The notes beneath the pieces are model-generated. The model had not been told where the DNA came from. It saw nothing but the letters and a program-made list of their open reading frames with translations, and did no database searches. This document shows positions 25,760 through 57,800 of a DNA stretch of 64,000 nucleotides, in pieces (the stretch's first letter is position 1; every line of letters starts with the position of its first letter). The position numbers and the translations under genes were made by a program. The stretch is taken from NCBI GenBank assembly GCA_030704615.1, contig CM060733.1:2542001-2606000 (forward strand). Reading direction: 5' to 3'. This DNA comes from Takakia lepidozioides. Its lineage: Eukaryota > Plantae > Bryophyta.

Positions 25760-26391
25760 TCATCTACATTATACAAAAGATTTTATGTATGAATTTTTTT
25801 TTATCCAATAAAAAAAAATTAATATCTTCGAATATAGCTAATTTTCTTAAAACATAATTATCAAAAATGACCAAATTATCGGGAATTATCAAATTTACTA
25901 AAAATTATCATGATTTACCATAAATTACCATAAATTACTATGAATTATGAAGTTATCAAGAGTTACCAAATTACTGAGAGTAACTCAAGAAATTGCTCAA
26001 GAAACTTCATTGGTTGATGAAGCTTCTTAAGAGACTTCTTTTGGTGGGAGAAGCTTCTCAAAAGACTTTCCTTGGTTGGGGTACCTAGTATATATATAGG
26101 AGGCGAGACTGGACACTCCCTCAGTATCGCCATCACAAGTTCGAACTACTCTTGCTTCCAGTTCTAGTACTCTCGCCCAATTGGTACTTAAGTCCAGTTT
26201 CCAGTATTCTAGTACCAAGTGTCACAGACATAGCCCAGAAGAATTCGCCAAGAGTAATTATCAGAAGTTATCAAGTCACGAGGAGTTACCATGATTTATC
26301 ATGATTTATTATGATTTATCATAAATTACCATGAGTTAGCAAATTACCAGGAGTAAGTACCAAATTACTGAGAATAATTTAGTGGATGAAG

Positions 26392-29300: not shown

Positions 29301-32300
29301 CATCATGCAGTAAAAAACAAGGGCATTGGTAGGCCTCCCCTTCGGTTCTTCTACCGTTCTTTCGACCACGGTTTCTGTTGCTTTGCAGCAGGCACAAGCC
29401 GTGTCTATTTTGTGTCGGGCAAAGGCGGCTGGGAGGGCTGCATCTCACCTCCCACCGATTTCTGACCCACCTCCCCTTCTATTTTCTGATTTGCTTCAGG
29501 CAGTTGGCAGGCCTTGCACTCGTTCTTTGCTAAGTCCACATCTCACCTGCCGGGGCCCGCACTTACCACTGGCTGTATGTTGATGATGTGCTGCCGACGC
29601 TCCCGCCTGCTTGCACTCGCTGGCCCTTCCTTGTTGCAATTTCCGTGCTATAAATTTGTATTTTGTAAGGTCTTGGCTATGGCCAAGCGCCAAAGGAATC
29701 TAAGAAATGTGTTATTTAGGGCTGGTCGCACTGGTGATTGTGATGAGGAGTCTCCTTCCGCTGTCCCCCCTGCCTCATCTTCAAGTGGTATGGACAAGCC
29801 ATCGAATAGTGTAGAGGCAGCCCAGAAAGCATGGAAAGATGTTTGGTACACTCAATTTGATTGGATTGAGTTTAACCATGATCTAGGTAGGGTTTTTTTG
29901 TAAAGTTTGTAGAGGGAAAGGAGGGAGGACAGTCTTTGCAAATGCTGGTTCTGTCAATGTCAAGGTGAGTTCATTCCAAGACCATGCTAGGTCAGAAGAG
30001 CATCGTAAGTTCTCTTGGGCCCTACAATCTGGTAAGAAAGCCATGGAGAAAGCCATAGCTAGTGCTAATCGAGCTTGTGATGATGCTGTTTTGGCTCTTT
30101 TCCAAGTTGCTTACTACATTGGTTTGGAGGCCTTGCCATTTAGCAAATTTCCAAGTTTGTGTCAACTTTTGGTTACTCTCAAAGCTTGTATTACCCAGAA
30201 ACTGTACCATGATGAGAAGTCATGTGCTGATATATTGTATTGTATCTCATGTGTTGTTCAGAAAAAGGTGTTGGATAGAGTGAAGGATTCCAAGTACTAT
30301 GGAATCATGATAGATGAGTCAACTGACATTTCAGTGACCGGTCATCTTGTTGTTTTTGCTTCTTTTGTTGAAGAGGGTTTGCCAGTCACTCTGTTTTTGG
30401 GATTACTTCATTATTGATGGCAAGAAGGATGCCGCAATGATATATGAGTGTTTACTAACTAGTTTGAAAGAGTGGGGTTTGGATGATGTAGATAAGTTTT
30501 TGGGTTTGGTTCGGATGGGGCAGCAACCATGGTGGGGACTCGATCCGGCGTGGTTGCTTGTCTTAAGCAAAAGGTAAACCCCTTTATGTTGGCCGTCCAT
30601 TGCGTAGCACATAGGACCAACTTGGCAGCATTAGAAGCTGCCAAGACATCAGCATGTCATCTTATTTCAAATGAGGTTGACACACTTTTGAACTCTCTTG
30701 CTGGTCATTTTCGCAAATCATCTAAGCGTAAGGCAACCTTGCAAGCTTTGCAGACCGAGCTTAATGATGCTCAGAAGTGCCTCAAAAGGTTTCACAAGAT
30801 TCGTTGGTTATCTAGGTGGCAGGCCGTGACATCGCTTTGTGATAGTCTTGAGAGTGTTGTCACGTATTTTAGAGATGTGTCGGTTGCCAATGATGATGGA
30901 TCAGCCTCTCTTTTGTATAACAAGCTTAGGGCATTCAAAATGATTTATGTCTTGTATTTTTTGGCTGATATGTTGCACGGTCTATCTCTACTCTCACGTG
31001 TGTTCCAATGGAAGTTTGTGGATGTAACTAGCATTGGGTCCATAGTTAAGACAGAGATTGCACAAATACGAATGTTTTTCATTGAGGATAGCACGGATTT
31101 GAACCAATCCACCTTCAATGAGGAAGTGGGTTATCACATCATCCCGGAATTTGGTCCTCCTGGTGGGTATTTGAGGCGGCTAGCCTCTGAGATTAGGGGA
31201 TCCAATTTTCATGGTGTACAAATGACACGAGAGAGGATAGGGGGTGATTTGGAGGCAGCACTTACCTTCCAAAAGCTTTATGCAGAGGCTGTTTGCAATG
31301 CTTTGGATGCCAGATTTGAGGACAACGGAGTTGTAAGTGCATTCAAAATATTGAGTCCATGTAACCTACCAACTAGGCAAGTGGGGTTAGCAAGTTGGGG
31401 TGTAGTAGAGTTGGAAATATTATGTGCGCACTATGGTGTCGAAAGACATATTGCAGGAAGGACATTGCTTGCCCTTGTTGACATAGCAGCGGTGAAACGA
31501 GAGTTCTTGCTTTCAAACTACAGGCAAGTACCGAGTGGATGGAGAAAACATTCAAGGATCTTTGGGGCATGGTGACTTGGAACCCTTCTCTAACGATGAA
31601 GTATGAAAACTTGCTTGTGCTTTCTGAAATTGCTCGAGTTCAATGTGTAAGCACTGCCGCATGTGAGAGGGCATTCTCAGTTCAAAACTCAATCAAAACT
31701 AAATTTCGAAACAAGTTGAAAACAAAGAACTTGGAAAGTGTGCTTCGTGTTGCTTTGGAAGGGCCAAGTGTGCAGGCATGTCAACCTGTTTTGATTGAGG
31801 CCATATCTTTGTGGAAGAACTCCACAAACTTCAGACATTTGTTCTCTCATCCTGAGCTATATTTAGCTGGACAGCCAATAGCTGGACAACCATAAGGTGG
31901 GCCATCATATGCAGAAGGTACGAATGATGATTTGCAGTTTTGAATTTATGTTTGTTTGTTTGTTTAGATAGGTAACGCTTCTAAAATTCAAGGCCCTTCA
32001 ACTTTTGGTTGAGGTCCTTGCATTTTAGAAGGGTTCGATCCTTGGCCTCCAACTGGTGGAGGGCATTGACAGGTTCAACTCCTGCCAAGGATACTTTTCT
32101 GCACTTGTTTGAATTGCTTAAAATTGGTTGTGATTATTTATTGTTGTTCATTTGTTGAATTTGTATGCAGCCGAATTTAATTTTCATTTGCAGGAAATGA
32201 GCCGGTTGATATGTACAATGGCCGGATTTATAGCCGAACACACCCAAAAAAAAAAGGAATATTACCGGTTGTAAAACAATATGTAGGAAATTGACCGCCT

Positions 32301-35300
32301 GAAGTTACCACTAAGGGGCAGCAGCCGACCCCCCAACCCACTTAGCCGGTTGGTGTTGAAAATGAGCGGCCACTGGCTGGTTCAACTCAAAATATTTCCC
32401 GGACACTGGTCACAGTCCTTCATGACGCCGGCGGCGGCGCGAAAGTTGGGACTCCCGACAAGTGACGTGGGGGCCTCTATTGAGGTGCGTTCTGCCAAAG
32501 GAGAACCGCAATTGGCGACAAGGTTGGCGTTTGATGTTCCTCTTCAACTGGGGAGTTGGGGGGGACGTGAGAACTTCACCATCTGCGAGATCGATGGAGT
32601 GGATCTCATTTTGGGGATGACCTTTTTGAGCAAATCCGGAGCGGTCATAGATGGCCGCAAGAGAGTAGTCACGCTGCCATGTGGGAATGGTGGCGAGGTC
32701 TTACGAGTGTCGGAAACGCCCAAATCCGTGGAGGGCGAATAAAACTTCTGTCAGCAAGGGAGTGGGCCATGGAGGAGGCACACGAGCCCCAGTTTTTGCT
32801 TTACATTAGAGAAGTAAAGGGAGAAGGCGATGGGGAGCCGAGCCCAGATTGGATCAAGGGGATTTGAGATACCAGGATGTGATGCCGGAGGATTTACCAA
32901 GCGGCTTGCCACCGCGAAGAGGAGTTGACCACAAGATCGAGGTGATACCGGGATCGGAACCGCCTGCTAAGGCACCCTACCGGTTGAGCCACAGGGAGTT
33001 GGTCGAGCTGAAGACTCAGCTCAAGGATCTAATGTCAAAGGGGTACATCCGGCCGAGTAAGTCACCTTACGGAGCCCCGGTGCTATTCGCAGACAAGAAG
33101 GATGGGATGCTGCTGATGTGTGTCGATTACAGGGCTCCGAATAAGGTGACTATCAAAAACCGGTACCCTTTGCCAAAGATCGACGACCTCTTCGATCGGT
33201 TGGCAGGAGCGAAGTATTTCAGCCGGATCGACTTGCGCTCCGGCTATCATCAAATTCGGGTGGCAGAAGGAGATAAGGAGAAAACTGCGTGCAGGACAAG
33301 GTATGGTTCGTATGAGTTCTTGGTGATGCCTTTCGGGCTCACCAATGCACCAGCGACATTTAGCACGCTGATGAACAGCCTTTTTCAGGAGTGGTTGGAT
33401 GACTTTGTGATCGTGTACATCGACGACATCTTGGTGTACTCGAAAACAAAGGAGGAGCACCTAAAAAAGGTGTTCCAAAAATTGCGAGAAGGGAAGCTGT
33501 ATGCCAAAGCTTCAAAGTGCGAATTTGGGGTCACAAAAGTGGAGTTCCTGGGGCATGTGATTACACAGGATGGGATCAAAATGGATGACAGAAAGGTGGG
33601 GTGATCTTGGACTGGGAGCCTCCGACTTCGGTCCCGGGAGTGCGATCCTTCCTAGGACTCGCCTCCTATTACCGGAAGTATGTGAGAAATTTCGCCAAGA
33701 TCGCAGGGCCGTTGTCAGACCTTCTGTGTAAATCCAAAGTCTGGGTATGGAACACCTTGTGTGGCCAAGCTTTTGCTGAATTGAAGCAGCGGATGGCGGA
33801 AGCTCCAGTCTTGAAAATCCCGGAGTTCGATCGTCCATTCGAGATACATACAGATGCGTCGGACTTCGCGATTGGGGGTATATTGATGCAAGATGGACGT
33901 CCAGTGGCTTACGAAAGTAAGAAACTGAATGAAGTGGAGCGACGGTGGCCGACGCACGAGAAAGAGATGAAGGCGGTGGTGCACTGTCTTGAGCTTTGGC
34001 GCCACTATGTTGGTTCCAACCCAGTGAAGGTGTTCACGGACAATGTCACGGTGAAGTATTTTGCCACGCAGCCCAAGTTGTCCCCAAAACAACTTAGGTG
34101 GCAAGATACTTTGGCAGTGTTCGACGTGGATATCCAGTACAAACCGGGACGAGACAACGTGGTAGCCGATGCTTTAAGTAGAAAGCAGCAGCTCTTGTTG
34201 GTGTACAAGGGCGAGACGGCGCTCCAAAGGAAGATCCGGAAGGCTTGCCGGAAGGATGAGCTGGCGAAGTCCGTGATGCAGGACTTGAGGATGGGGGTTA
34301 AATCGCAGTTCCACTTGCAAAATGGACTGCTCCGGTATAAGCAAAAGCGTCTCTACGTGCCGAGGAAGGATCAGAGATAGCCTCTTGAGAGAATGCCATG
34401 ATAGCCCGCTTGCGGGCTACGACGGAGCCAAGCGCACTGCGGCACTCTTGAAGAAAGAGTATTTCTGGCCCAAACTGAGGGAGGAGGCAGAGAGTATGTC
34501 AAGACATGCACCACATGCCAACAAAACCGGAGCGAGTACAAAAAGCAAGCGGGGCTGTTACAACCCTTGCCGATTCCAGAGGGGACTTGGGAAAGCGTCT
34601 CGATGGATTTCATGACTGCTATGCCGCTGTCAAAATGATTCGATGCAATCATGGTGGTGGTGGATAGGTTCAGTAAAATGGGTCATTTCATCCCCACCAA
34701 GGAGACGGCAACGGCGCAGGAAACAGGGCGACTTTACTTCGCCCACGTCTTAAAGCATCATGGAGTCCCAAAGGATATTGTCTCGGACCGCGATCCAAAA
34801 TTTACGAGTAAATTTTGGAGGGCACTTTGGAAGAAGATGGGGACGAGGCTGAAGATGAGCACCGCCTTCCGACCCACGACCGACGGCCAAACAGAAAGAG
34901 TGAATTCCGTAGTGAAGCACATCTTGCGGAATTACGTGTCGGCAGACCAAACAGACTGGGTGGAACACTTAGACGCGGCAGAGTTCTGTTATAATAACAG
35001 AACACTCCGCAACGGGAGTTTCCCCTTTTGTATTGGGTCTATGGAAAAGCACCTCTGGTGCCGACAAGTTGGGCCGCCCAGGACGTTGAGGAACCGACAG
35101 TAGCGGCGGTACTAGAAGAACGTGAGCGTTTGTTGAAGCTCGCAAAGTACAACATTGCCAAAGCTAGGAAACGGTATGAAAGGCAGGCGAATCGGAAGCG
35201 GAGGGAAGTGAAGTTTGAGGCAGGCACGGAGGTCTGGTTGAACATCAAGAATTTCCGACTACCTCCGGAAGTGAGTCCAAAGTTCGTACCTCCGTATGCG

Positions 35301-37295
35301 GGACCCTTTCGCATCCGGAAGGTTATGAATGAGGATGTGTATGAATTGGAGCTGCCGGCAAACAGCAAAGTGCATCCAGTATTTCACGTCTCCTTTTTGA
35401 AGCCTTACTTCAAAGATGAAGCGCGTCCGAATCGGCATCAAGTGTTGCGTCCGCCGCCTGTGTTGTTGGATCATGAAAATGAACCTGAGTACGAGGTGGA
35501 GGCAGTACTTAAGTCGAGGAGGTTCAAGAACCGAGAAACGGAGTATCTCGTCAAATGGAAGGGCTATCATCATGTGGAGGCATCTTGGGTGCGTGCCTCA
35601 GAAATGGGAAACGCATCCGAGGCGGTTGCAGTTTTCGAAGGGCGACCTCAAAAGCGGAAGAAGCGTTGATGGGGACATCAACCTTGGAGCGTGGGGGAGG
35701 AAATGCATGCTTAGCCCGGCTTAGCTAGCTCAGGAATCCGATTGCAAAAACTTGTATTGTACAAAAATTTGTTATAAAGGAAATGGGTTCCAAATGTTGT
35801 GTGTCCTATTTTGTTTGGAATGGTGATGCATGGTGTGCTTGGCTAGTGTGTAGAATGCATGCTAGCTTACAAAAGTGGGAGAGGTAAATTGGGTTAATCG
35901 TGTGTTTGCGCAGTGCCGAAATCGAGTGACTCCCATCCAAGGGGCAAGGAAACATGCGCCTTCTTTGGGAGTTCACGTGCTAGTGCGCACCTGGCGCGTG
36001 CGCGTACTATAACTGCGCTACCGAGGTGGTTGCCTTGTAGTGCGGGCTAACGCGGAAGCTATGTGCTTCCGTTCACGTACTCTACTCGTGTAGCCTCGTG
36101 ACGAAGTCGTAGTGCGGCTTCCACGTGTTCCCGTACCTCAGCCAGCATTCCAAGACGGACCCATTGTAGTGATTGGGGCGCATGCGGTTGGTTCAAGTTA
36201 TCTTCCTAGTCAAAGGGGGTTCGAGGTGAACCCTTGCGCAAAGTGATGCCAAAGCGCATCAGGAGCGATCGCAATCATGTTGTGTTTGTTCAGTAAGGGC
36301 GATTCGATCCTCGGGGAGGATCGTTTCCTTGACCTTGAAGAAGGCCAAAATGGTGCATTGGAGGAGCTTGAGAGGCTCCACCACTTGCCGTGACTTGGAG
36401 GGAAGTCGGCCAAACTAGCTAGTGGAGAGTAGAGTCAAGTGTGGGGTTTGGTTCTTTGCCATGGGACGCCATGGTACGGAACAAACTCCTTGATGTGGGA
36501 CCCACAACCTTGGATTTTCGTTTCTACAAAATGGACAGTCGATGAGGACATCGACTCCCTGTTGGTAGGGGTGTGTGTCGGGCCCTTTGCCTTGAGGGGC
36601 AGGGGGTTCGGGACACATGAGGGGCTACCCCTGTGGTGGGGGTAGCGGCAGCGATAAGGTATGGGGGGCTGAAGCACCCTTGAGTGCCCAAGGCACTCCA
36701 GGAGGCGGAGGCGCTCACTAGGTGGCCCCGCCCACCCGGGTTGCGGTGGGGGTGGCTCCACAAGGTGGTGGTAGCTTAGCGGGACTTAGTGGGGGTGGCA
36801 TAGGACTCACCATGGGGCGGGGACCTCGTGGTGGGAGTCGTGTGGAGTCTTGGGACTCATCACGGTCCAGGGGGCCCGTGGTGAGTGGCAAGACTCAACC
36901 GCGACTCATCACCGGGGAGTCGAGGGTTTTCGTGGTGGTTCGCCATAAAATGGCATGTCTGGTTGTGAAACCCCCCGCGGACAGCTACAGTAATATATAG
37001 GGAGTAGTAACCCCGAAACGGTGCAAGCCCCGTTGTGACCAAAAACTAGTGAGTAAGCGAGCGAGCCGGAAGCGACCAAAGAGTGGGGAGCTGTTTCGGA
37101 CTGCCAACTGCCAAGGGAATTCCCGTTGGTTCCACATCGGTGGAGGGTTCTTTGGGAGACAAAGGGGACCGTTATGCCCCGGTGAGCAGCCGAAGCTCCA
37201 AGTTGGCCCGACGGCCAGGTTGGGAGTCAGGCGCGCGCAAGTAAGCGAGTAACTATGACTTGAGGGGGGAGCTTACCGAAGTGAGGTGCGCGACA
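26392..37295 (+). mobile_element. Full-length Ty3/gypsy chromovirus (Galadriel-like), frameshifted
   Basis: LTRs 26392-27117 and 36576-37295 (TG..CA), TSD tgaag, tRNA-iMet PBS tggtatcagagc at 27120, purine tract before the 3' LTR. Gag with CCHC-like knuckle, protease LLDTGA, RT (YIDD), RNase H (TDAS), integrase (SDRDPKF..TERVN), GPF motif and chromodomain (EYEVEAVL..YLVKWKGY..ASW). Confidence 0.96.
28465..32408 (+). mobile_element. hAT DNA transposon (ZNF862/DUF4371-like transposase) inserted in the chromovirus protease
   Basis: Imperfect TIRs caatgaacgggaa / ttcccggacactg and 8-bp TSD gtcgcagt / gtcacagt; removing the element restores GASQSFMT. Transposase at about 29679-31895 has IDESTD, SDGA, HCVAH, RWLSR, CERAFS, with frameshifts. 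Internal tandem duplications at 28720-29200. Confidence 0.93.
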
Positions 37296-38039
37296 TGAAG
37301 CTTCTCAAGAGACTTCCCTGGATCGATGAAGCTTCTCAGGAGACTTCCTTAAGTTGGAGGATCTTTCTTTAGGCAGGGAAAGTTTCTGTAGGACTTCGTT
37401 TGGCTGGGGAAGCTTCTTAGGAGACTCCTTAGTAGCCAGTATATAAAAAAGGCAGACTTGGCACTCATCCAGTCTCGCCAACACAAGTTCAAACTACTCT
37501 TATTTCCAGTCCCAATACTCATGTCCAGCTTCCAGTACTCTAGTCCAGTTTCCAACATTCTAGTATTCCAGTCGAGTTTCAGTATCTTGCACTCTTGTCC
37601 ATGTTATAAATATCATCTTGAGTCTTCTTTACCAATCATGCATTCGACCATGCCGACCTTGACTTCTTGTCTGGTCTTGTACCTCTAAGTTTGATCTCTG
37701 TTTGTGTTTCATCATGCCCTTGTTCTTGACACCAAGTACAGTTCCAGCATCTTATATTCTTGTCATTTTTGTAAAGACTACATAAAGTTCCTCTTAATTC
37801 ATGTTTACCCATCCGCAGACCTTGACTTCTTGTCTAGTTTTATACCTCTAGTCTGATATCTTATTTGAGTTCAGTCATGTTCTCGTCCTTGACATTGACT
37901 GATATGGGTAGAGATCACGTTCTGCCTTGGTATATAAATTCGCAGAGATCGGACATACCCGTACCACTCTATGCCTCAACACCAATACATTCATATCATC
38001 CTTCAAAGGTTCAAGTTGGAATTAAGTAATGCAGTTGCA

Positions 38040-43283: not shown

Positions 43284-46136
43284 GTAGGGTTGGGGTGTTT
43301 GCTGGAACAATTCTAGGTTGTCATTGTTAGCTGCTAGCAGCAAGGCAGATGTGTGCATGATTTGTGTAGAGGCCTGGATAGCTGAAGGAGCAAGGATAGA
43401 GTGTGAAGATGCTTTGTGAGGCAGACTGACAGAGGCTCTACAGACTTTAAACCAACGAGGCATTTCAGCAGATTCAACGTACGTCTGTATCTTGCTTAAG
43501 TGCATCAAGATGAAAGGTCTTGAAGCTGGAAATAGGTGCACACTCACATTATCCAAAGTGGATTCACGCCAAAAACAATTCTATCCAACACCCTTGTCAA
43601 CATGTATGTTAAGTGTGGGAGCATCATGGATGCTCACCAAGTTTTCCACATAGTGCCTCAACGATCTTTGATCACGTGGAATATAATGTTGGCAGGATTT
43701 ACCAAGGATGGGTGTGGTAGGAATGCTTTGGAGACCTATGAGCAACTGCTACGCGAAGGGTGAAGTCCAATCACATCACGTTTGTTTGTGTTTGCAATGC
43801 GTGTGCAAGGCTGGGAGCTCTGGGAAAGGGGAAAGAGGTCCATGATGACATCGTCAAAGCTGGATTTGTACTAGATGTCATTCTGAACCCTGCCCTGGTG
43901 GACATGTATGCCAAATATGGGTGCATTGAGGATGCCAAGGGAGTGTTCAACACTATGGCTGAACGAGATTTGGTGTCGTGGAACGTGATGCTTGCAAGGT
44001 GTGCAGATCAGGAGCGTGGGATGGGGCTTTGGAGACCTTGTCAAGTTATTTAACCACTAGTGTGAAACTAGCTAGGAAATAGCTAGTTTTTACATATTGA
44101 CATTTGGGATTGGCCCAAGTGTCAATCCAGGGGTCAAGGCAGATTTAGGCCCTGGAGTGGTTATCTTCACGGCAAGCGCGGGAGGCTCATCTTTCTTGAG
44201 TTGAGCCTCACCGCGCCTAGCTATGGCGCCGTAGTGTGGATTCCCCATGGCGCGGGGTGCACTTGGCTTGACTTGTATTTGAGTAATGAGGTTATATATG
44301 CATGAGTTTATGCTTCAGCTTTGTGAGCTCGCATGAGCTTGTGCTTGTATTCTTCTTCTTTATCACTCGAGAAAGATCAGCTCGTATTTGTGAGTGCCAA
44401 ATACGAGTTAGTTGTAGCACTTGTGGTTTTTGCTTGAGAATGAGAGAAACCAGGTTGTTATGCAAGGAGCACCGTGGAGTTCTTGATTGTTAGAAGTGGA
44501 GGCGATGTGGGTTATGAGGTGGTAAACCTTGGCATTCGATCTTCAGCTTCAGAGATGAAAGCACCATGCTGCAGGTAATTCCAGAGCACCTTGATGGTTT
44601 CAGATTGTGTACATGCATGAGCAAGCACGATTGGGAAGAGGACCAATCAAGAGCAGGTTACAGTGGCTTTGGTGGAAAATCTGAGAACTAGCCTTGGAAA
44701 TGCGAGCTTTCATTGTGTGAAGGATTGCAAGACCAAGCGAAAGGGCTGATTTGGCTTGGGGCAAATCAGTGTACTTTGTGGAGTATGTTGAGATTGGGTT
44801 TCAATCTTGAGCTTCAGCATTGAGAGGGCTCTTGTCATGGCAAGAGCAGGGCTGGAACAGGAGCTAAGAGGTGCGGCAAGACAATGGAATGTGCACCTAG
44901 GGTTTCAGAGCTTGGAAGAAGAGCTCTTGCACCACAAGAGGAGTGTCTTGTGGCTGGAAATGTAAGCCTTAGGGTTTCAGGAGCTTGGCAAAGGTTGTGG
45001 AGTGCTTAGTCTTGTCTTAGAGAGCATCAAGGAGCTAAGGAGCCAAGATAGGGGACTGATACCTCTTGTGTGAAGAGGTTGCATGTGTGGAGCATGTATT
45101 CAGCTCATTGAAGCTTCCATCTTCAAGCTTGGAGGGCAAGCAAGGAAGAGGGAAGGGCTGACTTCCCTTATGTGAGAGCAATGCATGTATGGAGCATGCT
45201 TTCAGCCTGTTGAAGGCTTGTACTTTCAGGTTTGGGAGTGCAAGAAAGGAAGGAAGGGCTGGTTTCCCTGTAGGGCATGTGTGGAGCATGCTTCCAGCCC
45301 GCTGAAGCGTGTATTTTCAGGTTGGTGGGTGCAAGAAAGAAAACAAATGGGCTGATTCTCTGGTGGTGAGAGTGGGGCATGTGTGGAGCATGCCTTCAGT
45401 CCATTGGGCTTTTGTTTTCAAGCTTTAGAGAGCTAGAATGGAAGGGCTAGGGCTGGTTCCCACTTGGGTGAAAGAAAAGCACTTGTAAAGCATATGTGAG
45501 ATGGGGTTTCAACCTCAAGCCTAGATAGAGCATGGCTCTTGAAGTGGTAGGTATAGGGGGCTGGAATAGGCTCTAAGACAGATGCTATGGCCAAGGAAAA
45601 TGCTTGAATGAGTGCTCACAAGGGCTGGAAACCAGCAAGGCTTGGTTGTTTGCCATTGAGTTTAGTGGCGTGTTTGGGGAGTCTAAGTGAGAAAAAAAGC
45701 TTGGTTTGTGGCAACCATCTTCCTCATGGCTTAGGGCTACTATTGGTGGTGTGTAGGAGCCAAAAGAGCAAGAATACCTTGCTGATTTCTTCACAGCCGC
45801 CATAGCTCGGTGCAAAGAAGCCTAGCGTCCAAGCCCCATGGGATTCATGTGTGGAGCATCACTATCACTAGTGCAGGTGGAGTCTGCTGCAGCCGTGACT
45901 CGAGGAGCAGCACGAGTTCCTGAGCCACGAGGTGCAGAGGTGGAGTTGGATCCACAACATGGGGAGGCAAGCCGTCAGGCTAGGCTTCCTCAGTCATTCA
46001 CATTGGCGGAGACAGTGTCGACGCCATCCATGGCACCTAGTTCTCGCTCGACTGTTACTGAGGCGGAGGTTACTATGCCATTGGGGAGAGCTACACGGGT
46101 ACACTACCTAGTGTTGCCAAGGCTACGGCAGCTAGT

Positions 46137-47042
46137 GTGCTGCTAGAAGCGGCCACATCTGTGTGCCAGGCTCCATTGTTCTCGGCTACCATGATTGCGA
46201 CGCCGGGGGTAAGACCAGCTGAGGTGTTCAGGCTGGTAGCTACACTCTGTAACAGTGGGGAGGTTACTTTATCTTCTGCAGAGATAGTGGGAGGTGTAGT
46301 GCCGGAGGGATCCTTGGATTTGAGGGTCAAGACTGCCACGGCAGCGCCATGGCAAGTTGCAGCTGCCAGGTTGATGGAGCTGCCAGCTAGGCCAGCCATT
46401 GAGCGCACCATGGTGACACCTGGAGTTGTCATGTTAGACAACCAGGATGACATTTTCTATTTGAGTGGACCGGCAGACAAGAGGTACCGGCCACTGCGGG
46501 TCTTGTTGGATTCGGGAGCTCAACCATTGATGCTGGGCAGAGCTGCTATTGCAGGCTTGGGCCTCATGGAGGCGGATATGGAGCCTTGTCCTTTCCAGAT
46601 ACAGACGTCTCTGGGAGGATCGGAGCAGGCTCGGGGCATGACACGGCGTGAGTTGGCTATCAGACTACAGCCGGATCACCCTACAGATGGCTCAGTGATG
46701 CGAGCCAAGGCCATTGTGACAGACGCGGTCTCATACGATGTCCTGGTTGGTGGGGCAGTATTGTACCCCATGGGCTTCACCCTGGATTTTTGGGAGGAGT
46801 CAGCTTCCTATAGGCCTGGATGGCAGTCAGGGGAGCGCCGGCGTATGCAGCTCCCTGTGACGTTCATAGGAGGAGTTGCGGTTGCCCAGCGAGGCAAGAT
46901 GCCGACACTAACAGCATTCACAGCGGCAGTGAGTTGGCCTAGAGAGTTGATTGAGGGCAACGCTCATTCAGAGAATGTACCACCTCCGGGAGAGCAAGAT
47001 GACATGTATGGTATGGCGGAGTTGTCTACCATGGTTGCTTAG
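46137..47042 (+). CDS. Retropepsin-like aspartic protease region of the element's polyprotein
   Basis: RVLLDSGAQ motif and downstream YDVLVG. Confidence 0.8.
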   Translation: MLLEAATSVCQAPLFSATMIATPGVRPAEVFRLVATLCNSGEVTLSSAEIVGGVVPEGSLDLRVKTATAAPWQVAAARLMELPARPAIERTMVTPGVVMLDNQDDIFYLSGPADKRYRPLRVLLDSGAQPLMLGRAAIAGLGLMEADMEPCPFQIQTSLGGSEQARGMTRRELAIRLQPDHPTDGSVMRAKAIVTDAVSYDVLVGGAVLYPMGFTLDFWEESASYRPGWQSGERRRMQLPVTFIGGVAVAQRGKMPTLTAFTAAVSWPRELIEGNAHSENVPPPGEQDDMYGMAELSTMVA

Positions 47043-47214
47043 ACTCCATTGTGGGGCACGAGCAAGGATTTTCAGCGGGATGCTGATCGACGGGTGCAAC
47101 AAGTCTGGGTGGAGGCTTTTGTACTGTCAGGAGAGGAGGAGAGTGCGGGGATTGCACCAGGACCACCTCAGTTGTCTCCATTGGACACCACACCTATTGT
47201 GTGGCAGTATCCGG

Positions 47215-48180
47215 ATGAAGGCATTTGTCTTCTGGACTTGTTTGGCGGAATCAGCACCGGATTGGCTGCTGTGTTACAGGCAGGTGTACGAGTTCGACGT
47301 TACCTGTATGTGGAGAGGGATGAGACTGCACGACGCGTTTCACTTTGCCATGTTGCTCAGTTGGTGCAGCGGTACCCTGAGTTGTTGTCGGTGTCTGCAA
47401 TTCGTGGATATCAGTAGGCCTTGCCAGCAGACATTTTGTTGCTGGGGGCGCATGATTTGGAGCGGGTTGGCTCCATTGATCTGGTAGTGGCAGGTTGGCC
47501 CTGCCAAGAGCATTCATCAGCCGGGCATGGCAATGGATTGCGAGACTCGAGGTCGGGTCTGTTTTGGAAGAAGGTGCGGGTTTTGCGCCACTTGCAGCTT
47601 CATCAAGCTGTATCTCCAGCATACATCTTGGAGAATGTGCCACTGATGGACGATTCTCGGGCCAGGGTGATGGCCAGTGTGCATCAAGTCCGGTCATGGC
47701 TTGGGTCAGCAGTGCTGCTAGATGCAGCTACAGTGGGGTCACGGGCTCATCGTCCACGGCTATGGTGGACTAACTTGATGCCACCCGCACTGCTCAAGCG
47801 TGCATTTGATGGGGTGTAGCGGCCAGCACATCTCACAGTGGATAGCATTCTGGACACAGGGAGGCAGTCTCAGCGTGTGAGACACGATGACCGTTCGCCT
47901 TTGGCAGTGGTCAACAAGGTGGGTCAACCACGAGCAACATTATCTACACTGCTCAGTTTCCCAGGATCGCATGCTTTCCGGGATAGTGGACCTGGCCTCT
48001 TGTAGGATGCTCATTTGCAGCAGTTAGTGGAGCCTAATGCTGACGAGCGTGAGCGGGCAATGGGTTTTACCACTGGTACCACGGCGGTGTCGTCTCTTTC
48101 TGAGGCATCACGTCGTCAGGTGTTGGGGCAAGCAATGGATCTCAATTGCTTGACCTGGATTATCAGCTTGGCTATGGTTG
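47215..48180 (+). pseudogene. DNMT3-like C5 cytosine DNA methyltransferase domain within the retrotransposon polyprotein (in-frame stops)
   Basis: Motifs in canonical order: I LDLFGGISTG, II YLYVERD, IV DLVVAGWPCQ, VI YILENV, VIII RAHRPRLWWTNL, IX ERERAMGF, X RRQVLGQAM. Confidence 0.92.
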
Positions 48181-48634
48181 AGCAACGGAGAATGCGGAGT
48201 ACACTTTCCTCGATGGTCTCTCTGCCTACCGAGACGGTACAGGCAGTGAGTGGGGGCGAGCATGTGAGGACCACGGGGTGCAAGCATCCATGACACACGT
48301 GGGATGTGCTCGAGGTTCAGAGGGAGTTGACAGCCAAGGCGGCTGTGATGGATGAGGTTGGGGATTCTTCTGGGGTTGAGGAGGTCCTCAAGGATGAGAT
48401 GATGGGGCAGGATGAGGCCTTGTCATTGACTGAGCAAGCAGGGAGTACTGCTCAAGAGGTTGCGGCATAGCAACCACGAGACGCGTCCTCTACCTCTAAG
48501 TCTGTTGGACTTAAGGTTGCAGTTACGAAGGGCAATTGGGAGCCTGACATTGGACCTATTGTCACTAGAGAAGAGAGACGACGTATACAGCGGTTCCTGA
48601 GGCTTACAGGAATTGCTTTGCCTCTCGTGCTACG

Positions 48635-50359
48635 GTGGAGGAGCACGAGAGACATGTTCAGGTTCTGCATCGACCGGGTTTGGTCAATAGGGATGCGGAT
48701 GGATTGAGTCGCAATCCATGCACGAGCCAGCAGGATGACACTAGAGCTCGGTGGCATGGTGAGACGGACGAGGAGATGGTGTCGGGATGGCATGCATCTG
48801 CCTTTTTGTGTATCTTGGCATCGGGAGGTCAGGTTGGACCTACAACAGGGATGACTGTAGACGGAGTGTCTGAGGACCCTGAGGCTAGTGATGAGCCAGG
48901 TGGTGCCAGAGATATACATGAGGATTCGGTTGTGTTGGACTACCTCCGCACTAGAGATACGGCAGCTAGTGTGACTGCCAAGGAGAGGGATCGGATCCTA
49001 CAACGAGCCAAGAGGTTCAAGTGGGAGGGGATACATCTGCTTCGAGTATGGGAGGATGGTCAGGTGAGGATCGTGCCTCACCCAACACAGCGTGCACGGT
49101 TAGTGCGGCATGCCCATGAGGAGTTGGGGCATTTTGGAGTGCGACGCACTCACAGTTTACTGCAGGGGCAGTATTGGTGGCGTGGTATGCATACAGAGGT
49201 GCAACAATTCGTGGCTAGGTGCATGGTGTGTGACAGGGTGCGTGCTTCATTCAACGCCCCTACACCATAGTTGCATCCTTTACCAATCATGGGATTGGGC
49301 TACAGGTCGAGTCTTGACTTCGCAGGACCGTTGCCACTGACTATGCGCCACCACAGATATGTGTTGGTGATGGTGGAGCACTTCTCCAAGTGGATTGAGT
49401 TGGTTCCATTGCCTGACAAGGCTAGTGAGGGGGCTGCGTATGCATTCTTGGATCGTGTGCTTAGCCGATTCGGTGCTCCAGCTGAGGTACTCACGGACCA
49501 AGGGAGAGAGTTCTTGGGGGAGTTTCAGGCTTTGAGTAATAAAGCCTTGATAGACTACCGCACCACTTATCGGGATCATCCTGAGGCCGATGGCTTGGTA
49601 AAGAGAGTTGTTCAGACGGTGAAGAGGGGTTTGCACAAGTATGGCTTGCAGAAAAAGGGACACCTATGAGATTGGGATCTTCAGGTTCATTGGTTAGCCA
49701 TGGGCTACAGGTTCAGCAAACAAGCATCACTTGCCTCCTTCTCACCATATTTCCGTCTCTTTGGCCGAAAGCCGGATTTGCCTGCAGCCATTCGTAGGGA
49801 CACTGCTCAAGTCCTTAACCTTGACGATCCGGACGTGTGGGTACATGCATGTGATCAGCGTGCAGAGTTGTTCAAGAACGTCATGCCCATGGCTTTTGAG
49901 AACCTTGCCATTGCACAGCACCGTGATACGTTGAGGTATGCCACTATACATGGTGGAGGATATCGTCCTGGGGTTCGGAGGTTTAGCCCTGGTGACTATG
50001 TTTATTTGCAGCAGACTGCTCCTACGACTCTGGATGTTACTGCAGGGCGTGTTATTCTGAGGGTTCGAGAGGTGTTGCCCTCAGGGGTCCTGATCTTGGA
50101 GGGTCGGGATGGCATGACTTGGAAGGACCATGTGCGTAATTGTGCGCCATGTCACCTTCCCAATGTCGATGGCAGAGTTGACCCAAACTTGGCAGTGGTA
50201 CCTGCAGGTTTGAGGTGCATGGTCTGTGGGTCTGCCAAAGGGGCAGCCACCATGCTGGTGTGTGATCGATGCTCAAGGGGTTGGCATATGGGATGCTTGA
50301 CACCACCTCTTGAGAAGGTTCCTGATGGAGATTGGTTGTGTCCACACTGCTTGGGATAG
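48635..50359 (+). pseudogene. RNase H C-terminal remnant, integrase (HHCC plus core) and C-terminal PHD finger
   Basis: HRPGLVNRDADGLSR; HEELGHFG..CMVC; LDFAG, EHFSKW, TDQG.EF, DGLVKR (catalytic E apparently changed to K); PHD CMVC..MLVCDRCSRGWHMGC..PDGDWLCPHC (C4HC3). Confidence 0.9.
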
Positions 50360-52384
50360 TGGCAATGGACATGACTGGAGGCAGCTAACAAGACATAGGA
50401 GACCAAGCTCATAGGAGTCAATACATGATATCCCAAGCTCAAGTTCACAGGTTGCAAGACGGCGACTAACGATGGGGCAACTCTTGCACCCGACCTCTTG
50501 ATCTATCGAGTTTGAGTGTAGTAGGGATAGTGGTGGAGAACTTAGTGAGGCTATGGTCACTATCACATCTTGTGGCTACCTGGACTTAGAGGGACCTAAG
50601 CACCAGCTAGGGGGGCGATTGTGTGGACTAGTGACTGCCATAGTGGGCAGCATAGTGGCAGCCTAGTTGTAGCCTAGTGGTTGGACTAGTGGCTGGACTA
50701 GTGGTATACTACTGTGTGGTGTGCACATGTGTTGTGTGGTTTTGGACAGGGATGTAGTTGTGTAGCGATATGTATGCGCACGACAGCTGTCAAGTTATTT
50801 TACCACTAATATGAAACTAGCTAGGAAATAGCTAGTTTTTACATATTGACATTTGGGATTGGCCCAAGTGTCAATCCAAGGGTCAAGACAGATTTAGGCC
50901 CTGGAGTGGTTATCTTCGCGGCAAGCGCGGGAGGCTCATCTTTCTCGAGTTGAGCCTCACCGCGCCTAGCTATGGCGCCGTAGTGTGGATTCCCCATGGC
51001 GTGGGGTGCACTTGGCTTGACTTGTATTTGAGTGATGAGGTTATATATGCATGAGTTTATGCTTCAGCTTTGTGAGCTCGCATGAGCTTGTGCTTGTATT
51101 CTTCTTCTTTATCATTGTGTGGACTAGTGACTGCCATAGTGGGTAGCATAGTGGCAGCCTAGTTGTAGCCTAGTGGTTGGACTAGTGGCTGGACTAGTGG
51201 TGGACTAGTGGTATACTAGTGTGTGGTGTGCATATGTGTTGTGTGGTTTTGGACAACGATGTAGTTGTGTAGCGATATGTATGCGCACGACAACCTAAAA
51301 GCAAATGATGGGGGAAGGGGTGAAGCTTGACCACATCATGTTTGTATGCGTTTGCAGTGTGTGTGCAAGCCTTGCAGCCCTAGAAAGCACATGCAAAGAG
51401 GTGCATGGTTGCATCACCAAAGCTGGAATTGTACTAGATGTGATTATGAACAATACCCTCGTGGGCATGAATAGCTGAAGGAGCAGGGATACAGTGTGGG
51501 TGCAGATTCATCCAAGATGGCCGGATTTCAAGCTCCAGATTACCTATGATTCCCTATGGAATGATAGCTACAAGAAACCTGCATGGGTAGATGGTCAACT
51601 GGTAGCCGCAGCAACAGCGGCACAATTGATAAAATCAGGCACCGCTAATGAAGGCACCTTTTTCAACACATGAGACCATTTTCCCCTCTTATCAGAATCG
51701 GCCCTAAATTTCCATGTTGCATTTTGCAAGTTAGCTGGTTGAGTGAAATCTAGTTGGAGTGACTTTGACATGATATTGCCAATGTGAGGAAAGTATCCAA
51801 AAACAGGTAACAGAGATGAGGAGAAGCTGTGGAATGAATGCTTTTCTGACCTTAGTCAATGGTCGGACAATCAAGGCAAACAGGTGTATGCGTGTCAATG
51901 ACCAAATGTCATTCTGAACACTGCCCTGGTGGACATGTATGCCAAATGTGGGTGTATCGAGGATGCAAAGGGAGTGTTCAACACTATGGCTGAATGAGAT
52001 GTGGTGTCGTGGAGTGTGATGCTTGCAGCCATCGCGCTACCTGTCAGCAAGACAACTCCCAAACCTCCAGTCCTTGATTGCCAGAATGGGGTAAGGGTTC
52101 CCTACCTGCAATTTTCCATTGCTTGAAACCTTGATCATGTATCTTCTGCCGTTTTCGGGCTGGATGGCAGTTGAAGGTGGGTGACCTAGTCCGGCCAAGC
52201 CAGTGTATGCATCTTCTGCAGTCTACTTAGACTTTGCAGCTTTGTGCATTTTTGTAGCAGCACCGGATTAGATTATGGAACGGATCTCTGAACATTAAGT
52301 CACGTTGTATTTGAATCGATGTTCCAATTTCAAATGTGCTTTCATGTTTCAATGGTGTTTTTGTGTTTCAATGCTATGGTCATG

Positions 52385-53038: not shown

Positions 53039-53327
53039 AGAGGGTAGAGGAAAATAGCTCCATATGCAACGAATCTAGATAAAGTTAAAGATATTATAAG
53101 AGAGGCTTTTGTCTTGAAGTTGAAGCTAGTCCATTACGAGACTACTTAACATATATAGTAAAAATGTCTAAAAACAAGTTTTAGTGATTATTTTTAGCCT
53201 AGCTAGAACTATATAAGAAGCTCGTCGGTGAAGCCACAAATCAATTGTTCTTGTTGTGTGCTTTTATGGTTGGGTGAAGAGCTTCTATACAATCCTCTTT
53301 CATCTTTGTTGTTCTATCTCTGTTTTC

Positions 53328-54520
53328 TCAAGTTACAGTGCTGAAGAGTATAGAGATGTCATTTTAAGAAATCGAACGAGTTACAACAACGTGCACTCGT
53401 TATTGGTACAATGTTTGATTTTCTATATCTAGTACCATATGTTTAAGAAACTTGGGCTACCTTAGGCAACGGAGGTACACATCGTTTACACCGAAGTTGA
53501 GAATCGAAATAGAAAAGAACAAACCAATATACTGTCACGGACATAGCCTAGAGGAACTTACCAGGAGTAAATATCAAAAGTTACCAAGTTATCAAAAATT
53601 ACTGTGATATACCATGATCTACCATAAGTTATCATTAGTTACCAAATTACCGAGAGTAACTTGGGAAACTGCTCATGAAGCTTCCTTTGGAGGAAACTTC
53701 TCCATCAAGAAACCTCATCTGGGGAAGTCTCTTAGGGAACCTCCTAGTATCTAGTATATATAGGAGGCGAGACTGGACACTCTTCAGTCTCACCAACACA
53801 AGTTCAAGCTACTCTTGTTTCCAGTCCCAGTACTTTAGTCCAGCTTCCAGTACTCTAGTCCAGTTTCCAGTATCTGGTACCCCAGTCCAGTTTCCAGCAT
53901 TCCAGTATTCGAGTCGAGTTCCAGTATCTTGTATTCTTGTCCATTGTTATAAAGATCATCTTGATTCATGTTTACCCACCGTGCATTCGGCCACGCCGAC
54001 CTGGACTTCTTGTCTAGTCTTGTACCTCTAGTCTGATCTCTTGTTTGTGTTCAGTCATGTTCTCGTTCTTGACATATACTATATTGGTTACCCAACTCAA
54101 AGACAGAAGAAAGTTGGGAGTCAATTATATATATTTCGGAGATTCCAACAGTTGATAAATTGATTATGGCTTGTTACATCGATGTGAGATGTTATGAGGT
54201 GGTCTTGTTCTGTAACCTAAGCCACAATCGGTTTATCAAATGTTGAAATCTCCGAACTTCGTATAATTGATTCCCAACTTCATTCTGTCTTTGAGTTGGG
54301 TAACCAATATGGTATATTGGTTTATTCTTTTCTACTTCGGTGTAAACGATGTGTACCTCCAATGCCAAAGATAACCCAAGTTTCTTCAATATGGTACTGG
54401 ATGTAGAAGATGTGTTTGGAATCAACACTAGATCGCTAAGGAGTGCGCGTTGTTGTAATTTTGTAGCAGCGTTCGAGATCTTGAAATGATATCTCTATAC
54501 TCTTCGGCACATGTAACTGA
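53328..54520. repeat. Long (about 300 bp per arm) imperfect inverted repeat or foldback, left arm interrupted by a solo LTR
   Basis: 53328-53532 plus 54080-54178 is reverse-complementary to 54211-54520 (e.g. ggttacccaactcaaagacagaa / ttctgtctttgagttgggtaacc). Confidence 0.85.
53533..54074. mobile_element. Solo LTR (family X), 542 bp
   Basis: TGTCA...TGACA ends with 5-bp TSD tatac. Confidence 0.9.
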
Positions 54521-54807
54521 CAAAATAGTTGTCAAAACAAATTACACATTGACGCAATAATTTTGTTATGTTTTGTAAATGTTTCTGTATTTGTCGTAAA
54601 CAAACATAAGCATCGCTTCATTCACTCTTTATATTAAGTGCCAAAGGTAGTTGGCGGTGGTCGACAATTCAATATAATACTAGTTTGCCAGTGTGCACAC
54701 CAACGACCTCGTCAAGCCAATGGTGCTAATCCTCTCGAGTTTGGGTCCATGGATTTGTATACTGCTGATCCTTCAAGGTTGCGTCGAGAGGGTTGCAGGG
54801 CAGGTTG

Positions 54808-57800
54808 TGTGAAGTTATTCTAGAAAGAAGACAAGACAAGAAAACTAAGAAGAATTCATATTAAGCTTGTTTTATAATGAGAAACATGTCTCTATTTATA
54901 CATAAAGTCAACAACTATAATTATCTGGGTATGAATAATCACACCTTTTATAATCTAGCTAATATGGGTTTCGTGTTCAATTCTCATCACTCCCCCTGAA
55001 ACTATATTAGCGTGCTTCATGCTAAATAAAAGTTTAACTCGACTTACACTTTTAGTAAGGAAATCAGCTACCATTAGTTCAGTAGTACAATAGGCTAATT
55101 TAAGTTCCCCACTAGTTGTCTTTTCTCTTATGTAGTGAAATTGAATTTCTCTGTGTTTAGATCTAGTATGGAACTTTGGATTTTCCGTTAGTGCTATTGC
55201 ACTTTGATTATCGCAAGCAATAATAGTAGGATTAGATTGTTCATGTTTTAAATCTGTCATTAATCTCCGTAACCACACCGCTTCCTTGGCAGCAAGAGTC
55301 GCAGCAATGTACTGTAAACACCATGAAGGTTTTCTTATTCTAGTAGATCGACGTGGACTACTAGGTTGACTTGAGGGTTCAGGGAGATCAAAATCATCAT
55401 CTGAATGGTCATTAAAAGTAGGAGAAATAACTGGTGGAGTGGAGTTTACAGGTTGGTTAGTAGGAGGTATTAAATTTTGAGGAGGAATAAGAACATTAGA
55501 TGGAGTAATTGAAGGAAGACGGTCAGCATTTGGTGGAGAGAGGGCATAAAAAATGGATCGAGGGACTGAAACAGAATGGGAATCAGGATCAGGATCAGGA
55601 TCTGGAGGGCTTCATTAAAGGAAACATCCCTACTAATATGAATGGTTTTATTTGGTTCATAATAAAGACGAAATGCTTTTGATGTTTCATCATAGCCAAG
55701 CAAACGACATAGAAGGCTTTTAAAATCTAATTTCTTTCTGAGTTCATCAGGAATGTGCATGTAAGCCTTACATCCAAAAATACGGATATGTGATAGAGTA
55801 GGCTTACGGCCAGTCCATTTCTCATGAGGGGTCATATCAATTACGACATTTGTAGGTAAGCGATTTTGTAAATAAGCTGTTGTTGAAACAGCTTTTGCCC
55901 AAAAGATTTGGGTAGTTTAGAATAGTCAAGCATACAACGAGCGCTCTCCATGAGTGTGCGGTCCTTCCGCTCTGTGCGACGCCGTTCTGTTGAGGTGTGT
56001 AGGAAGTAGTCATTTGTCTTGAAATGCCATGTGTAGTACAAAAATCCTTAAATGCATTAGATTTATATTCACCCCCTCCATCTGAACGTCTTTAGGCGCT
56101 TGCCAATAAAAGTTTCAGCATGAGATTTAAATGCTTGAAAATGAGTAAATGTTTCACTTTTGTTTTTTAGAAAGTAGAGTTTAGTCCAACGGAAGGAGTC
56201 ATCTATAAAAGTTAAGAAAATATATAAAACCCGTAAAAAAGGGGACCGAAAGTGGACCACAAATGTCAGTGTGGATCAAATCTAGAATGTTTTCACTTCT
56301 ATATTCACTTGTGCGAGGAAACTTAGTGCGGGCATGTTTTCCCATAACACAACTAGGACAAAAATTAAGGTGGGGAAATCGTTTTAATTTTACGCCATAG
56401 ACATAAGGAAGAGTATAAAGTTGTTGTAACTTTTTAATTCCTATGTGTCCTAATCTTAAATGCCACAGTTCAGATTCATTTATTTCTTGATTGGTAATAT
56501 TAATAAGTGGAGAAGAGATTGATGGACAATCAGCAAGTGCTTTAGGATATTTAGATTGACCCAATTTATATAACTGACCCTCTGGTGTAAATGTAGTAAT
56601 TATATTAAAGTAAGGGGCTTTATTTTTAAGAACACATTGTGCAGGTGAAAAAATAAAGGTATAGCCAACATTAACTCCTTGACTGACTGAAATTAAAATT
56701 TTCTTAATACCAGGGACATATAAGACATTTGATATAAACTTTAAATCTCCTGAAGTTAGCTCAATTTGAATTGTGCCATGGCCTTTAATAGGATAAGATG
56801 AGTTATCTCCAGTGTTGTGCGGGTCCGGGTTTTGAAGGCGGGTACCCGTACCCGGCGGGTTAGGATCTGGGTTACCGGGACCGTGCTATCACAAAAAACC
56901 CGGACCCTGACCCAGGACCCGCCTGCTGGGTCCAGAACCCCTTAAAACCGCGGGCCAATGTTGCGGGTCAGGGTCCGGGTCTTAAATTTAGATGGGGCAT
57001 GCGGGGTCCACCTTAGCTCTGGTAGGTTTTGTCACATGTGTGGAGGGGACGAGCAGCAATAGGCCACTGCAGCAGCCAACCACCTCAAAAGCGGTTGTGG
57101 GTTCAATCCACGGAGTGGTGTCACAAAGTTGTGCCCTATGGGACCATAATTTACACCTCCCAAAGGAGGCGTCATATATTATTATTAGGCCAGATCCCAC
57201 ACATCCATGCTATAGTGATCTACCCTTGAGGCATATTACTATTCTTAACATGTTTAAAGAATTGATATTGAAAAATAGAAAATGGAACTCAAACTTCTAT
57301 TTTAATTCTTATTCATGGTATACATATTCATATTCATGGTATATTTTGAAGGAATGTCTCTTAAATTAAAATTCATTATTAGGATTTAATTTTTTTTCCT
57401 GCCAAAAATAATTTTATCCCTTATTTTTCTAATTTATTTAATCAATAAATTAGGACCCGGATCCGAACCCGTGAACCCGCTATCTTCCAACAACTACCCG
57501 GACCCTAACCCGAGTCCGTGTTTACAAACCCGGACCCGAACCCGGACCCGGATTTTCCAAATTTCAAAAACCCGGATCCGGACCCGGACTTGGCTCCGAG
57601 AAAAAACCCGCACCCGGACCCCGGCGGGTTCCTTAAAAAGGCAGAACCCGCACAACACTGGTTATCTCCCAAATAGACATTTTGGGAGGTTGTTGTTAGT
57701 ATGGTGTTGAAAAACAATCTTCGTTAGATGTCATATGTTGTGAAGCACCAGAATCAACAAACCATATATTGTTATTAATTTCAGCTGAGATAGATGTTAC

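Follow-up and report, generated by a model that had tools for sequence, protein, structure and literature searches.

We are highly confident that the element found in the window (the whole 64-kb stretch of DNA that was analysed) is a copy, dead and with internal deletions, of a gypsy lineage that occurs in bryophytes and Klebsormidium, i.e., of the KnitGypsy-Dnmt3 type. Intact members of this lineage encode Gag, protease (PR) and a DNMT3-type cytosine methyltransferase (DNMT), then reverse transcriptase (RT), RNase H (RH), integrase (IN) and a PHD finger. The joint reading, i.e., a dead KnitGypsy-Dnmt3-type copy, a DNMT3 that likely methylates the element's own cDNA and a likely integration from an end-joined circle, appears on the whole probable to us. 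DNMT-bearing gypsy elements are a known kind; the extension is to land plants (liverworts, Sphagnum). The analysis further adds permuted ends with true integrase signatures, an internal palindrome and a leaky-type stop, which lead to a specific mechanism.

Structure and decay of the window copy

The element spans 44039-51292, carries the repeats A1, B1, A2 and B2, and has a 4-bp ACCT duplication on both sides (Table 1). It is flanked by the remains of a PPR sequence (Pfam PPR, 28.3 bits); together with the nearest named relatives, which are liverwort and Sphagnum proteins, this makes a bryophyte host very likely. One contig from another run (X8) has the element start exactly at 44039 with a different flank. 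TG...CA termini, a short target site duplication (TSD), a DDE integrase, a primer-binding site and a polypurine tract are present as in conventional LTR retrotransposons, but there is no complete direct repeat per end as in the conventional LTR layout. The preliminary description had named an LTR retrotransposon; with regard to the ends this has to be corrected, since the two ordinary LTRs are replaced by split direct repeats (A-coding-B-A-B). It had overlooked these ends as well as the conserved stop 3' of the DNMT. The hallmarks of DIRS/Ngaro elements (tyrosine recombinase, no TSD) are not found either: an rve integrase and the 4-bp TSD are present, and Pfam scans of the window and its relatives yielded no tyrosine recombinase family.

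Table 1. Features of the DNMT-bearing element (window coordinates).
Feature	Position	Strand	Remark
Left TSD ACCT	44035..44038	+	equals 51293-51296; 5-bp version mismatches
Repeat A1, left element end (TGTC start; interpreted as R-U5 preceded by the 3' part of U3)	44039..44365	+	97.2% identical to A2
Predicted self-primer	44189..44200	+	12-nt complement of 44366-44377; one mismatch in A1, exact in A2 (50938-50949)
Predicted self-priming primer-binding site, adjoins A1	44366..44377	+	
Gag C-terminal remnant, frameshifted; N-terminal ~430 aa with zinc knuckle gone	45826..46430	+	aligns to Marchantia P0004 residues 433-490 and from 498
Aspartic protease, DSG at 46509	46431..46850	+	motif; 40-60% identity to same region of relatives
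DNMT3-like C5 cytosine methyltransferase domain	47205..48170	+	PF00145; DNMT3A best; stops 47415, 47817, 48003
Conserved in-frame stop TAG CAA CCA, predicted read-through site closing ORF1 (Gag-PR-DNMT)	48468..48476	+	
Remnant: linker, 11-residue RT piece behind YxDD, RNase H tail (two deletions)	48610..48720	+	
DDE integrase (H2C2 zinc finger, core); stops 49268, 49667	49049..49780	+	PF17921 E 1e-16, PF00665 E 5e-11
PHD finger, integrase C-terminus	50216..50350	+	PF00628 E 1.3e-11
Polypurine tract, directly 5' of B1	50609..50618	+	
Repeat B1 (GACA end; interpreted as the 5' part of U3)	50619..50785	+	97.0% identical to B2 plus 11-nt indel
Palindrome GACAGCTGTC at B1/A2 junction, predicted internal integrase attachment site	50782..50791	.	
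Repeat A2	50788..51114	+	
Repeat B2 (ends GACA; right element end; A2/B2 = predicted end-joining junction)	51115..51292	+	
Right TSD ACCT, within decayed PPR sequence	51293..51296	+	

The protease has no Pfam match in the window ORF; Asp_protease_2 was found on some relatives. At 0.49, the CpG observed/expected ratio of the element is the same as in the sequence around it (0.43-0.55) and is uninformative. A perfect 10-bp hairpin (44381-44407) lies just 3' of the primer site, and the long leader of the element contains tandem units of about 100 nt at 45080-45480.

Judged by motifs, profile and fold ranking, the domain is a DNMT3-type C5 cytosine methyltransferase. Its motifs stand in canonical order, unlike the permuted order of DRM, without introns and in a single frame, which is also the frame of the protease DSG: I (LDLFGG, 47232), II (YVERD, 47307), IV (GWPC, 47493), VI (ENV, 47631), VIII (AHRPRLWWTN, 47745), IX (48045) and X (LGQAMD, 48123), with a motif span of 47232-48140. 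The PF00145 match (E 2e-11) reaches 44.3 bits, where the cut-off is 22. Among PDB sequences, DNMT3A matches best (E 2e-9); DNMT3B/3C and the DRM-type 4onj (1.6e-4) rank behind it. A 22-row profile gave E-values of 4e-23 for DNMT3A, 2e-15 to 9e-12 for DRM-type enzymes, 2e-8 for HhaI and 6e-7 for DNMT2, which is a similarity ranking and not a rooted tree. The structure model of P0002, the relative from Calypogeia, has a mean pLDDT of 66, with most of the DNMT at 85-95. It matches DNMT3A-DNA with a TM of 0.84 by target length, and all top ranks of the fold search with this model are DNMT3A/B/C. With the PF00145 match, which the preliminary description had proposed as a check, and DNMT3A as closest PDB match, its claim of a DNMT3-like methyltransferase in a gypsy-type land-plant polyprotein is borne out.

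It had further placed the motifs in one intronless frame directly after the protease. The single frame and the lack of introns stand, but the frame is not open: TAG stops lie inside the domain (Table 1) and at 47040 before it. Nor is the position immediate, since about 118 codons of linker separate the protease and DNMT domains, with motif I 723 nt 3' of DSG. Given the three in-frame stops in the domain, this copy cannot produce the enzyme.

The window copy is dead. Beside the stops in the integrase, frameshifts are present, and the RT-RNase H region has lost about 1.2 kb, i.e., the distance from the DNMT end to the integrase is 879 nt vs. 2072-2155 in 6/6 relatives measured. About 0.9 kb of gag is gone as well (A1-to-PR distance 2066 vs. 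2921-2998 in relatives), and other family contigs diverge 5' of 45837. The third catalytic integrase position is K, such that, together with the broken frame, this copy is silent on present activity. At 47040, 48004 and 49268, contigs of other copies differ from the window in almost their whole depth (among the 40 of 774 rows listed); these stops are therefore private to the window copy. Open relatives exist, e.g., P0002 and P0004.

We considered whether the depth at 48624-48656 marks an RT-RH deletion common to most copies. This was rejected, because the stretch is an RT piece that full copies cover too. Few contigs span the deletion joints (X1 record 6, X2 records 13-14, X6 records 29-30), each with 3-7 other letters, and the 31-letter rule applied at the joints is satisfied by X6 record 30 only, at the second joint. 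A small deleted subfamily is possible. The RT-RNase H deletions (48600-48660) leave the remnant in frame with the integrase, and the frameshift at 48600 is absent from full-depth contigs of run X5. A non-autonomous form that keeps PR-DNMT and IN-PHD is likewise possible.

Other features of the window lie outside the element. A SAD/SRA-domain ORF (PF02182, E 1e-34; 18954-19799 and 20598-21758, both on the minus strand) is probably part of a host SUVH-like gene; no relatives of similar length were found for it at E<=1e-20. A decayed chromovirus (about 26986-37295; RT, RNase H, SH3, chromodomain) lies between 98% identical 132-nt repeats and has a CpG observed/expected ratio of 0.9, above its surroundings. 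A tandem duplication of about 0.9 kb (15899-17421) with 100% identical 300-nt blocks is either very recent or an assembly artefact. We also found nested, MITE-like inverted repeats (53320-54528), another repeat family (copies at 25102-25954, 37392-37900 and 53585-54085), a copia-like fragment (56199-56885) and LINE-like RT and endonuclease fragments (2752-4530, 9178-10104).

Relatives of the element and selection on the domain

A search for longer homologs gave 50 proteins; identity is 67% for Calypogeia fissa, 57-67% for 16 Marchantia polymorpha rows, 48% for Sphagnum fallax and 45% for Klebsormidium nitens. The profile search added Sphagnum troendelagicum (68%); neither vascular-plant names nor host DNMT3 occur among the matches listed (120 of 276). 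An exhaustive search gave 236 clusters at E<=1e-30. Among 197 proteins (query included), 133 also bear PR, RT, RH or IN, and the DNMT precedes RT in 14 and follows it in 51. The order PR-DNMT-RT is found in Marchantia, Sphagnum and Klebsormidium, and PR-DNMT also in Calypogeia. Loci L003, L013, L022, L029, L040 and others have the intronless DNMT3 within a polyprotein of gypsy order (RT-RH-IN). Metagenome loci (best 80 of 258 matches) fall mostly into two lineages (1 and 2), about 65% and about 40% identical to the window DNMT, both with the order gag-PR-DNMT-RT-RH-IN-PHD. The 258 matches come from an alignment query; metagenome and viral contigs scanned with the single protein P0002 gave no match. 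Finally, family contigs span the DNMT domain in 3/4 runs, which are from different samples. That is, the domain is not limited to one copy, a point on which the preliminary description had made its reading depend, but occurs in many elements of liverworts, Sphagnum, Klebsormidium and the metagenome loci.

Next, we compared the window copy with 15 close loci. For the DNMT, pN is 0.18-0.22 and pS 0.72-0.76 (saturated), with dN/dS of about 0.1 where computable; pN is 0.06-0.15 for the integrase and 0.24-0.43 for the linker. The DNMT is thus under purifying selection as strong as that on the integrase, unlike the linker. Within the two families, the median dN/dS of the DNMT is 0.57 (14 pairs) and 0.31 (12 pairs) vs. 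0.51 and 0.38 for RT. Being counted pair by pair, these values reflect both selection and post-insertion decay, and the value 0.57 includes much neutral decay. The dN/dS test that had been suggested for the domain hence speaks for purifying selection and not for neutral decay.

These data leave next to no room for a one-off capture of a host DNMT3 mRNA, or for a nested insertion or assembly chimera in the window copy: the domain is intronless and the copy decayed, as such an event would have it, but dozens of loci, as well as named proteins of liverworts, mosses and an alga, have the domain in the same place and frame, and it is under purifying selection and is spanned by the contigs of the three runs.

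To place the element, we used two trees. In the DNMT tree (186 rows, without a host DNMT3 row; domains below 240 aa were dropped and Sphagnum fallax thereby), the window falls into a clade of support 100 with Calypogeia, Marchantia and lineage 1; this clade and Klebsormidium are not grouped with support. The unrooted RT-RH tree separates 10 DNMT-before-RT rows, including Klebsormidium, from 45 DNMT-after-RH rows, with an SH-like support of 97 for 55 rows and 71 for 33 rows. Rooting this tree by three outgroup rows from the window and the loci was rejected, as these rows are long-branched. Because the domain order, the split repeats and the side of the RT-RH tree are the same, the window element most likely belongs to the lineage of the Klebsormidium KnitGypsy-Dnmt3 and would not be an independent land-plant capture. 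Thus, of the earlier claim, the DNMT-carrying land-plant element is retained, and the separate capture most likely is not.

A second arrangement, RT-RH-DNMT-IN-PHD, is present in 51 proteins (e.g., P0033-P0035, P0037, P0039, P0061, P0070), and those checked retain the catalytic GWPC. Since this set stands apart in both trees, the domain moved within Pol at least once. P0049 (1417 aa) has both PF00145 and PF05869, a phage Dam family, and resembles the dual-methylase EpiLTRs in this.

Possible role of the methyltransferase and proposed route of integration

In 26/35 lineage-1 loci (some of them duplicates), an in-frame stop follows 85-133 codons after the DNMT; the other 9 are frameshifted or rearranged there. 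The stop context is TAG CAA CCA in the window and TAG CAG TTA in L022 and L024, which fits the read-through consensus CAR-YYA (PMC2194720), and most other loci have CAA CCC, one base off. RT continues in the same frame past the stop, open proteins terminate at it, and it is absent from the list of variable sites among family contigs. Lineage 2 loci do not have the conserved stop, so a DNMT at Gag level is not general.

In the lineage of the window, a leaky stop would yield an ORF1 product Gag-PR-DNMT, i.e., a DNMT as abundant as Gag, which would be packaged in excess where the cDNA is synthesized. Such a Gag-level enzyme in the particle would favour new cDNA as substrate, and the methyl mark would set how host chromatin or nucleases treat the new copy. 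With moderate confidence, we predict the element's own new cDNA to be the substrate of the DNMT. Its release by the protease, as put forward in the preliminary description, would be a further prediction for intact members. The related idea of an epigenetic camouflage, raised in the preliminary description, finds no support. Transitions between repeat pairs affect 67/228 CG, 50/149 CHG and 120/1083 CHH sites (ancestral base assumed to be C or G), and given the high CG and CHG rates, integrated copies behave as methylated DNA with no sign of escape.

It is rather doubtful that the DNMT instead acts on host chromatin or the insertion site, guided by the integrase PHD, or dampens the element to the host's benefit. 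The PHD is found on the integrase in both domain orders and Gag-level expression could supply free enzyme, but the Pfam scan found no targeting domain of its own in the enzyme, and polyprotein products are usually packaged with the RNA. Both ideas are raised in passages of the 2018 paper (PMC5890265). We hold it for quite improbable that the particle retains the domain for DNA binding or as a structural element, with catalysis being unimportant. It is true that the Klebsormidium enzyme produced no methylation in yeast, a result called inconclusive by the authors in the respective passage (PMC5890265); against this, the catalytic PC, the E of ENV and AHxR of motif VIII are invariant in 24/24 rows of alignment A1, and C, E and the motif VIII R in 22/22 more distant rows.

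The layout A-coding-B-A-B is shared by the window and 7 loci having both ends. B precedes none of the 5' A copies, of which 25 are distinct (two of the 27 rows are duplicates); two chance pattern flags among them showed no B by BLAST. The 3' ends comprise 11 distinct B-A-B (window included), 8 with B only and one cut at the locus edge, while A followed by host DNA was not found at any 3' end among the loci. Repeat hits on the opposite strand or in rearranged loci were set aside (L001, L015, L020, L021, L044). Exact 4-bp TSDs flank 8 of the 10 copies with both ends; L019 has one mismatch and L043 none. The 3' ends that stop after B1 belong to L003, L008, L013, L019, L025, L038, L063 and L068, where L013 is A-coding-B with an exact TSD. 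These B-only ends could result from 1-LTR circles, double cutting or B-B recombination.

All 12 distinct B1/A2 junctions carry the palindrome GACA-NN-T(G/A)TC with its 2-nt spacer, which is kept in both metagenome lineages. The A2/B2 joins are heterogeneous: flush, 1-2 nt short, with an extra base, or with about 145 nt gone (L058, TSD intact). A-pairs and B-pairs are about equally diverged in 6/6 copies with both measured, so both are re-copied in each cycle. A G-rich tract precedes B in all loci where B adjoins the coding region. The bases right after A1 are complementary to mid-A over 9-16 nt in 8/9 elements, and controls reached 9 nt in at most 1/52; among the 9 elements tested, L078 has no self-priming match. 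Given the tract before B and the self-priming site after A, the true LTR would be B+A. We also considered the spacer change rate (GC in 4/12) as a sign of targeted methylation and rejected it, because the spacer is lost at integration and variants may be inherited.

Integrase 3' processing removes 2 nt. In the proposed mechanism, the RNA would start in mid-A and self-prime at the site behind A1, and plus-strand synthesis would begin at the tract 5' of B, so that a linear B-A-coding-B-A cDNA results. The natural ends of this cDNA would be joined to a 2-LTR circle; the heterogeneous A2/B2 joins resemble such end-joining products. The integrase would then cut the 5' copy of GACA^GC-TGTC, with loss of the 2-nt spacer that matches ordinary 3' processing; the CA ends would be inserted with a 4-bp stagger, which gives A-coding-B-A-B. 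We give a cautious preference to this route, i.e., integration from end-joined circular cDNA cut at the palindrome inside the LTR. The insertions begin at the A start and end at the B end, unlike the LTR limits that reverse transcription would define (B start, A end). If the two palindromes of a plain circle were equivalent, half of the insertions should be A-B-A-coding-B. Since this is seen in 0/25, the second palindrome is never used alone and an extra asymmetry is needed, which could come from the left LTR becoming double-stranded first or from a methyl mark on one palindrome copy.

A regeneration of the ends in the style of DIRS/Ngaro seems unlikely to us. In that case, the RNA would span A1-B2, the internal B1-A2 would serve as a splint that juxtaposes the ends, and the integrase would act on a single junction without end-joining. 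The layout is the same as in SymbioDIRS and KnitGypsy, and the sole permutation seen (0/25) would be explained. However, ordinary LTR boundaries at the B start and A end are marked by the B1-adjoining tract and by the self-priming site 3' of A1, the A2/B2 junctions differ between copies, including the 145-nt deletion, and the Pfam scans lack a tyrosine recombinase.

Returning to the circle route, it appears somewhat more probable than not that an ancient streptophyte gypsy lineage integrates solely from 2-LTR cDNA opened at a palindrome in U3. That, in addition, the packaged DNMT3 methylates the cDNA such that only one of the two identical palindromes is cut is a speculative combination to which we give little credence; if true, it would unite two peculiarities found side by side in this lineage, from Klebsormidium to mosses and liverworts.

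Comparison with known systems

The closest known system is KnitGypsy-Dnmt3 of Klebsormidium nitens (de Mendoza et al. 2018, PMC5890265), for which passages of that paper report an acquisition in the K. nitens lineage and Ka/Ks <0.2. Common to both are an intronless DNMT3 in a gypsy polyprotein, purifying selection, a DNMT before RT (P0041) and the same side of the RT-RH tree. The DIRS-like repeat layout is shared as far as the figure legend tells for Klebsormidium; it names DIRS-type repeats with gypsy domains and spells out A-coding-B-A-B for SymbioDIRS. They differ in the host, an alga there and land plants (liverworts, Sphagnum) here, and in the stop after the DNMT and the PHD finger of the window lineage, neither of which is in P0041, a partial protein. 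TSD, primer site, palindrome or integration mechanism of KnitGypsy-Dnmt3 do not appear in the passages of PMC5890265, where 'circular' gives 0 hits. Its survey table has Physcomitrella and Selaginella, but not Marchantia or Sphagnum.

In passages of a 2025 paper and a 2026 preprint, 'streptophytes' are mentioned with reference to the 2018 work. In the literature searched, i.e., outside subscription journals and repeat-database reports, we found no split or permuted LTRs in gypsy elements and, with preprint supplements also outside the scope, no published land-plant description of a KnitGypsy-Dnmt3-type element. The self-carried DNMT3 thereby moves from one alga to a lineage with open frames in the model liverwort Marchantia (e.g., Mp4g09160, P0004), which makes the question of 2018, i.e., the role of a retrotransposon DNMT, testable by genetics. 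ORF1s are already annotated as host 'DNA methyltransferases' and can inflate bryophyte DNMT counts.

SymbioDIRS-Dnmt3 of Symbiodinium likewise has a DNMT3 in Pol and A-coding-B-A-B repeats, and passages of the same paper report de novo CG methylation by it in yeast (PMC5890265). It differs by a tyrosine recombinase and a DIRS-type RT, in contrast to the DDE integrase and 4-bp TSDs here.

EpiLTRs (bioRxiv 10.64898/2026.05.21.726589) are LTR elements, too, and combine a DNMT with a chromatin reader according to the preprint. Their DNMT is, however, DNMT4-related and combined with DAM and a chromodomain, and they occur in Cymbomonas and Euglena; the preprint treats the streptophyte Gypsy-DNMT3 as a separate capture.

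The predicted self-priming is of the Tf1 type, as in Tf1/Sushi, Tcn1, Phygy and Selgy in passages of Neumann et al. 2019 (PMC6317226), in which 'methyltransferase' has 0 hits. Those elements have two ordinary LTRs and were found by LTR-FINDER, which we infer would miss the split layout; standard LTR finders likely miss such split-repeat elements in general. For Phygy, the passages give the 4-base target motif NCGN, which the TSDs of the window family do not fit.

Finally, the cut at a palindrome on a circle that leaves 3'-processed CA ends, as proposed here, resembles integrase cleavage of 2-LTR circles in retroviruses, reported for a palindrome of foamy virus (PMC1180852) and for the circle junctions of HIV-1 (PMC4372172, PMC1905944). 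In those viruses, the LTR-LTR junction itself forms the palindrome and the provirus is colinear, whereas here the palindrome lies inside U3, the insertion is permuted, and this is apparently the rule of the family. LTR circles are usually seen as dead ends; the ends of the present elements suggest a natural case in which they are the normal precursor of integration.
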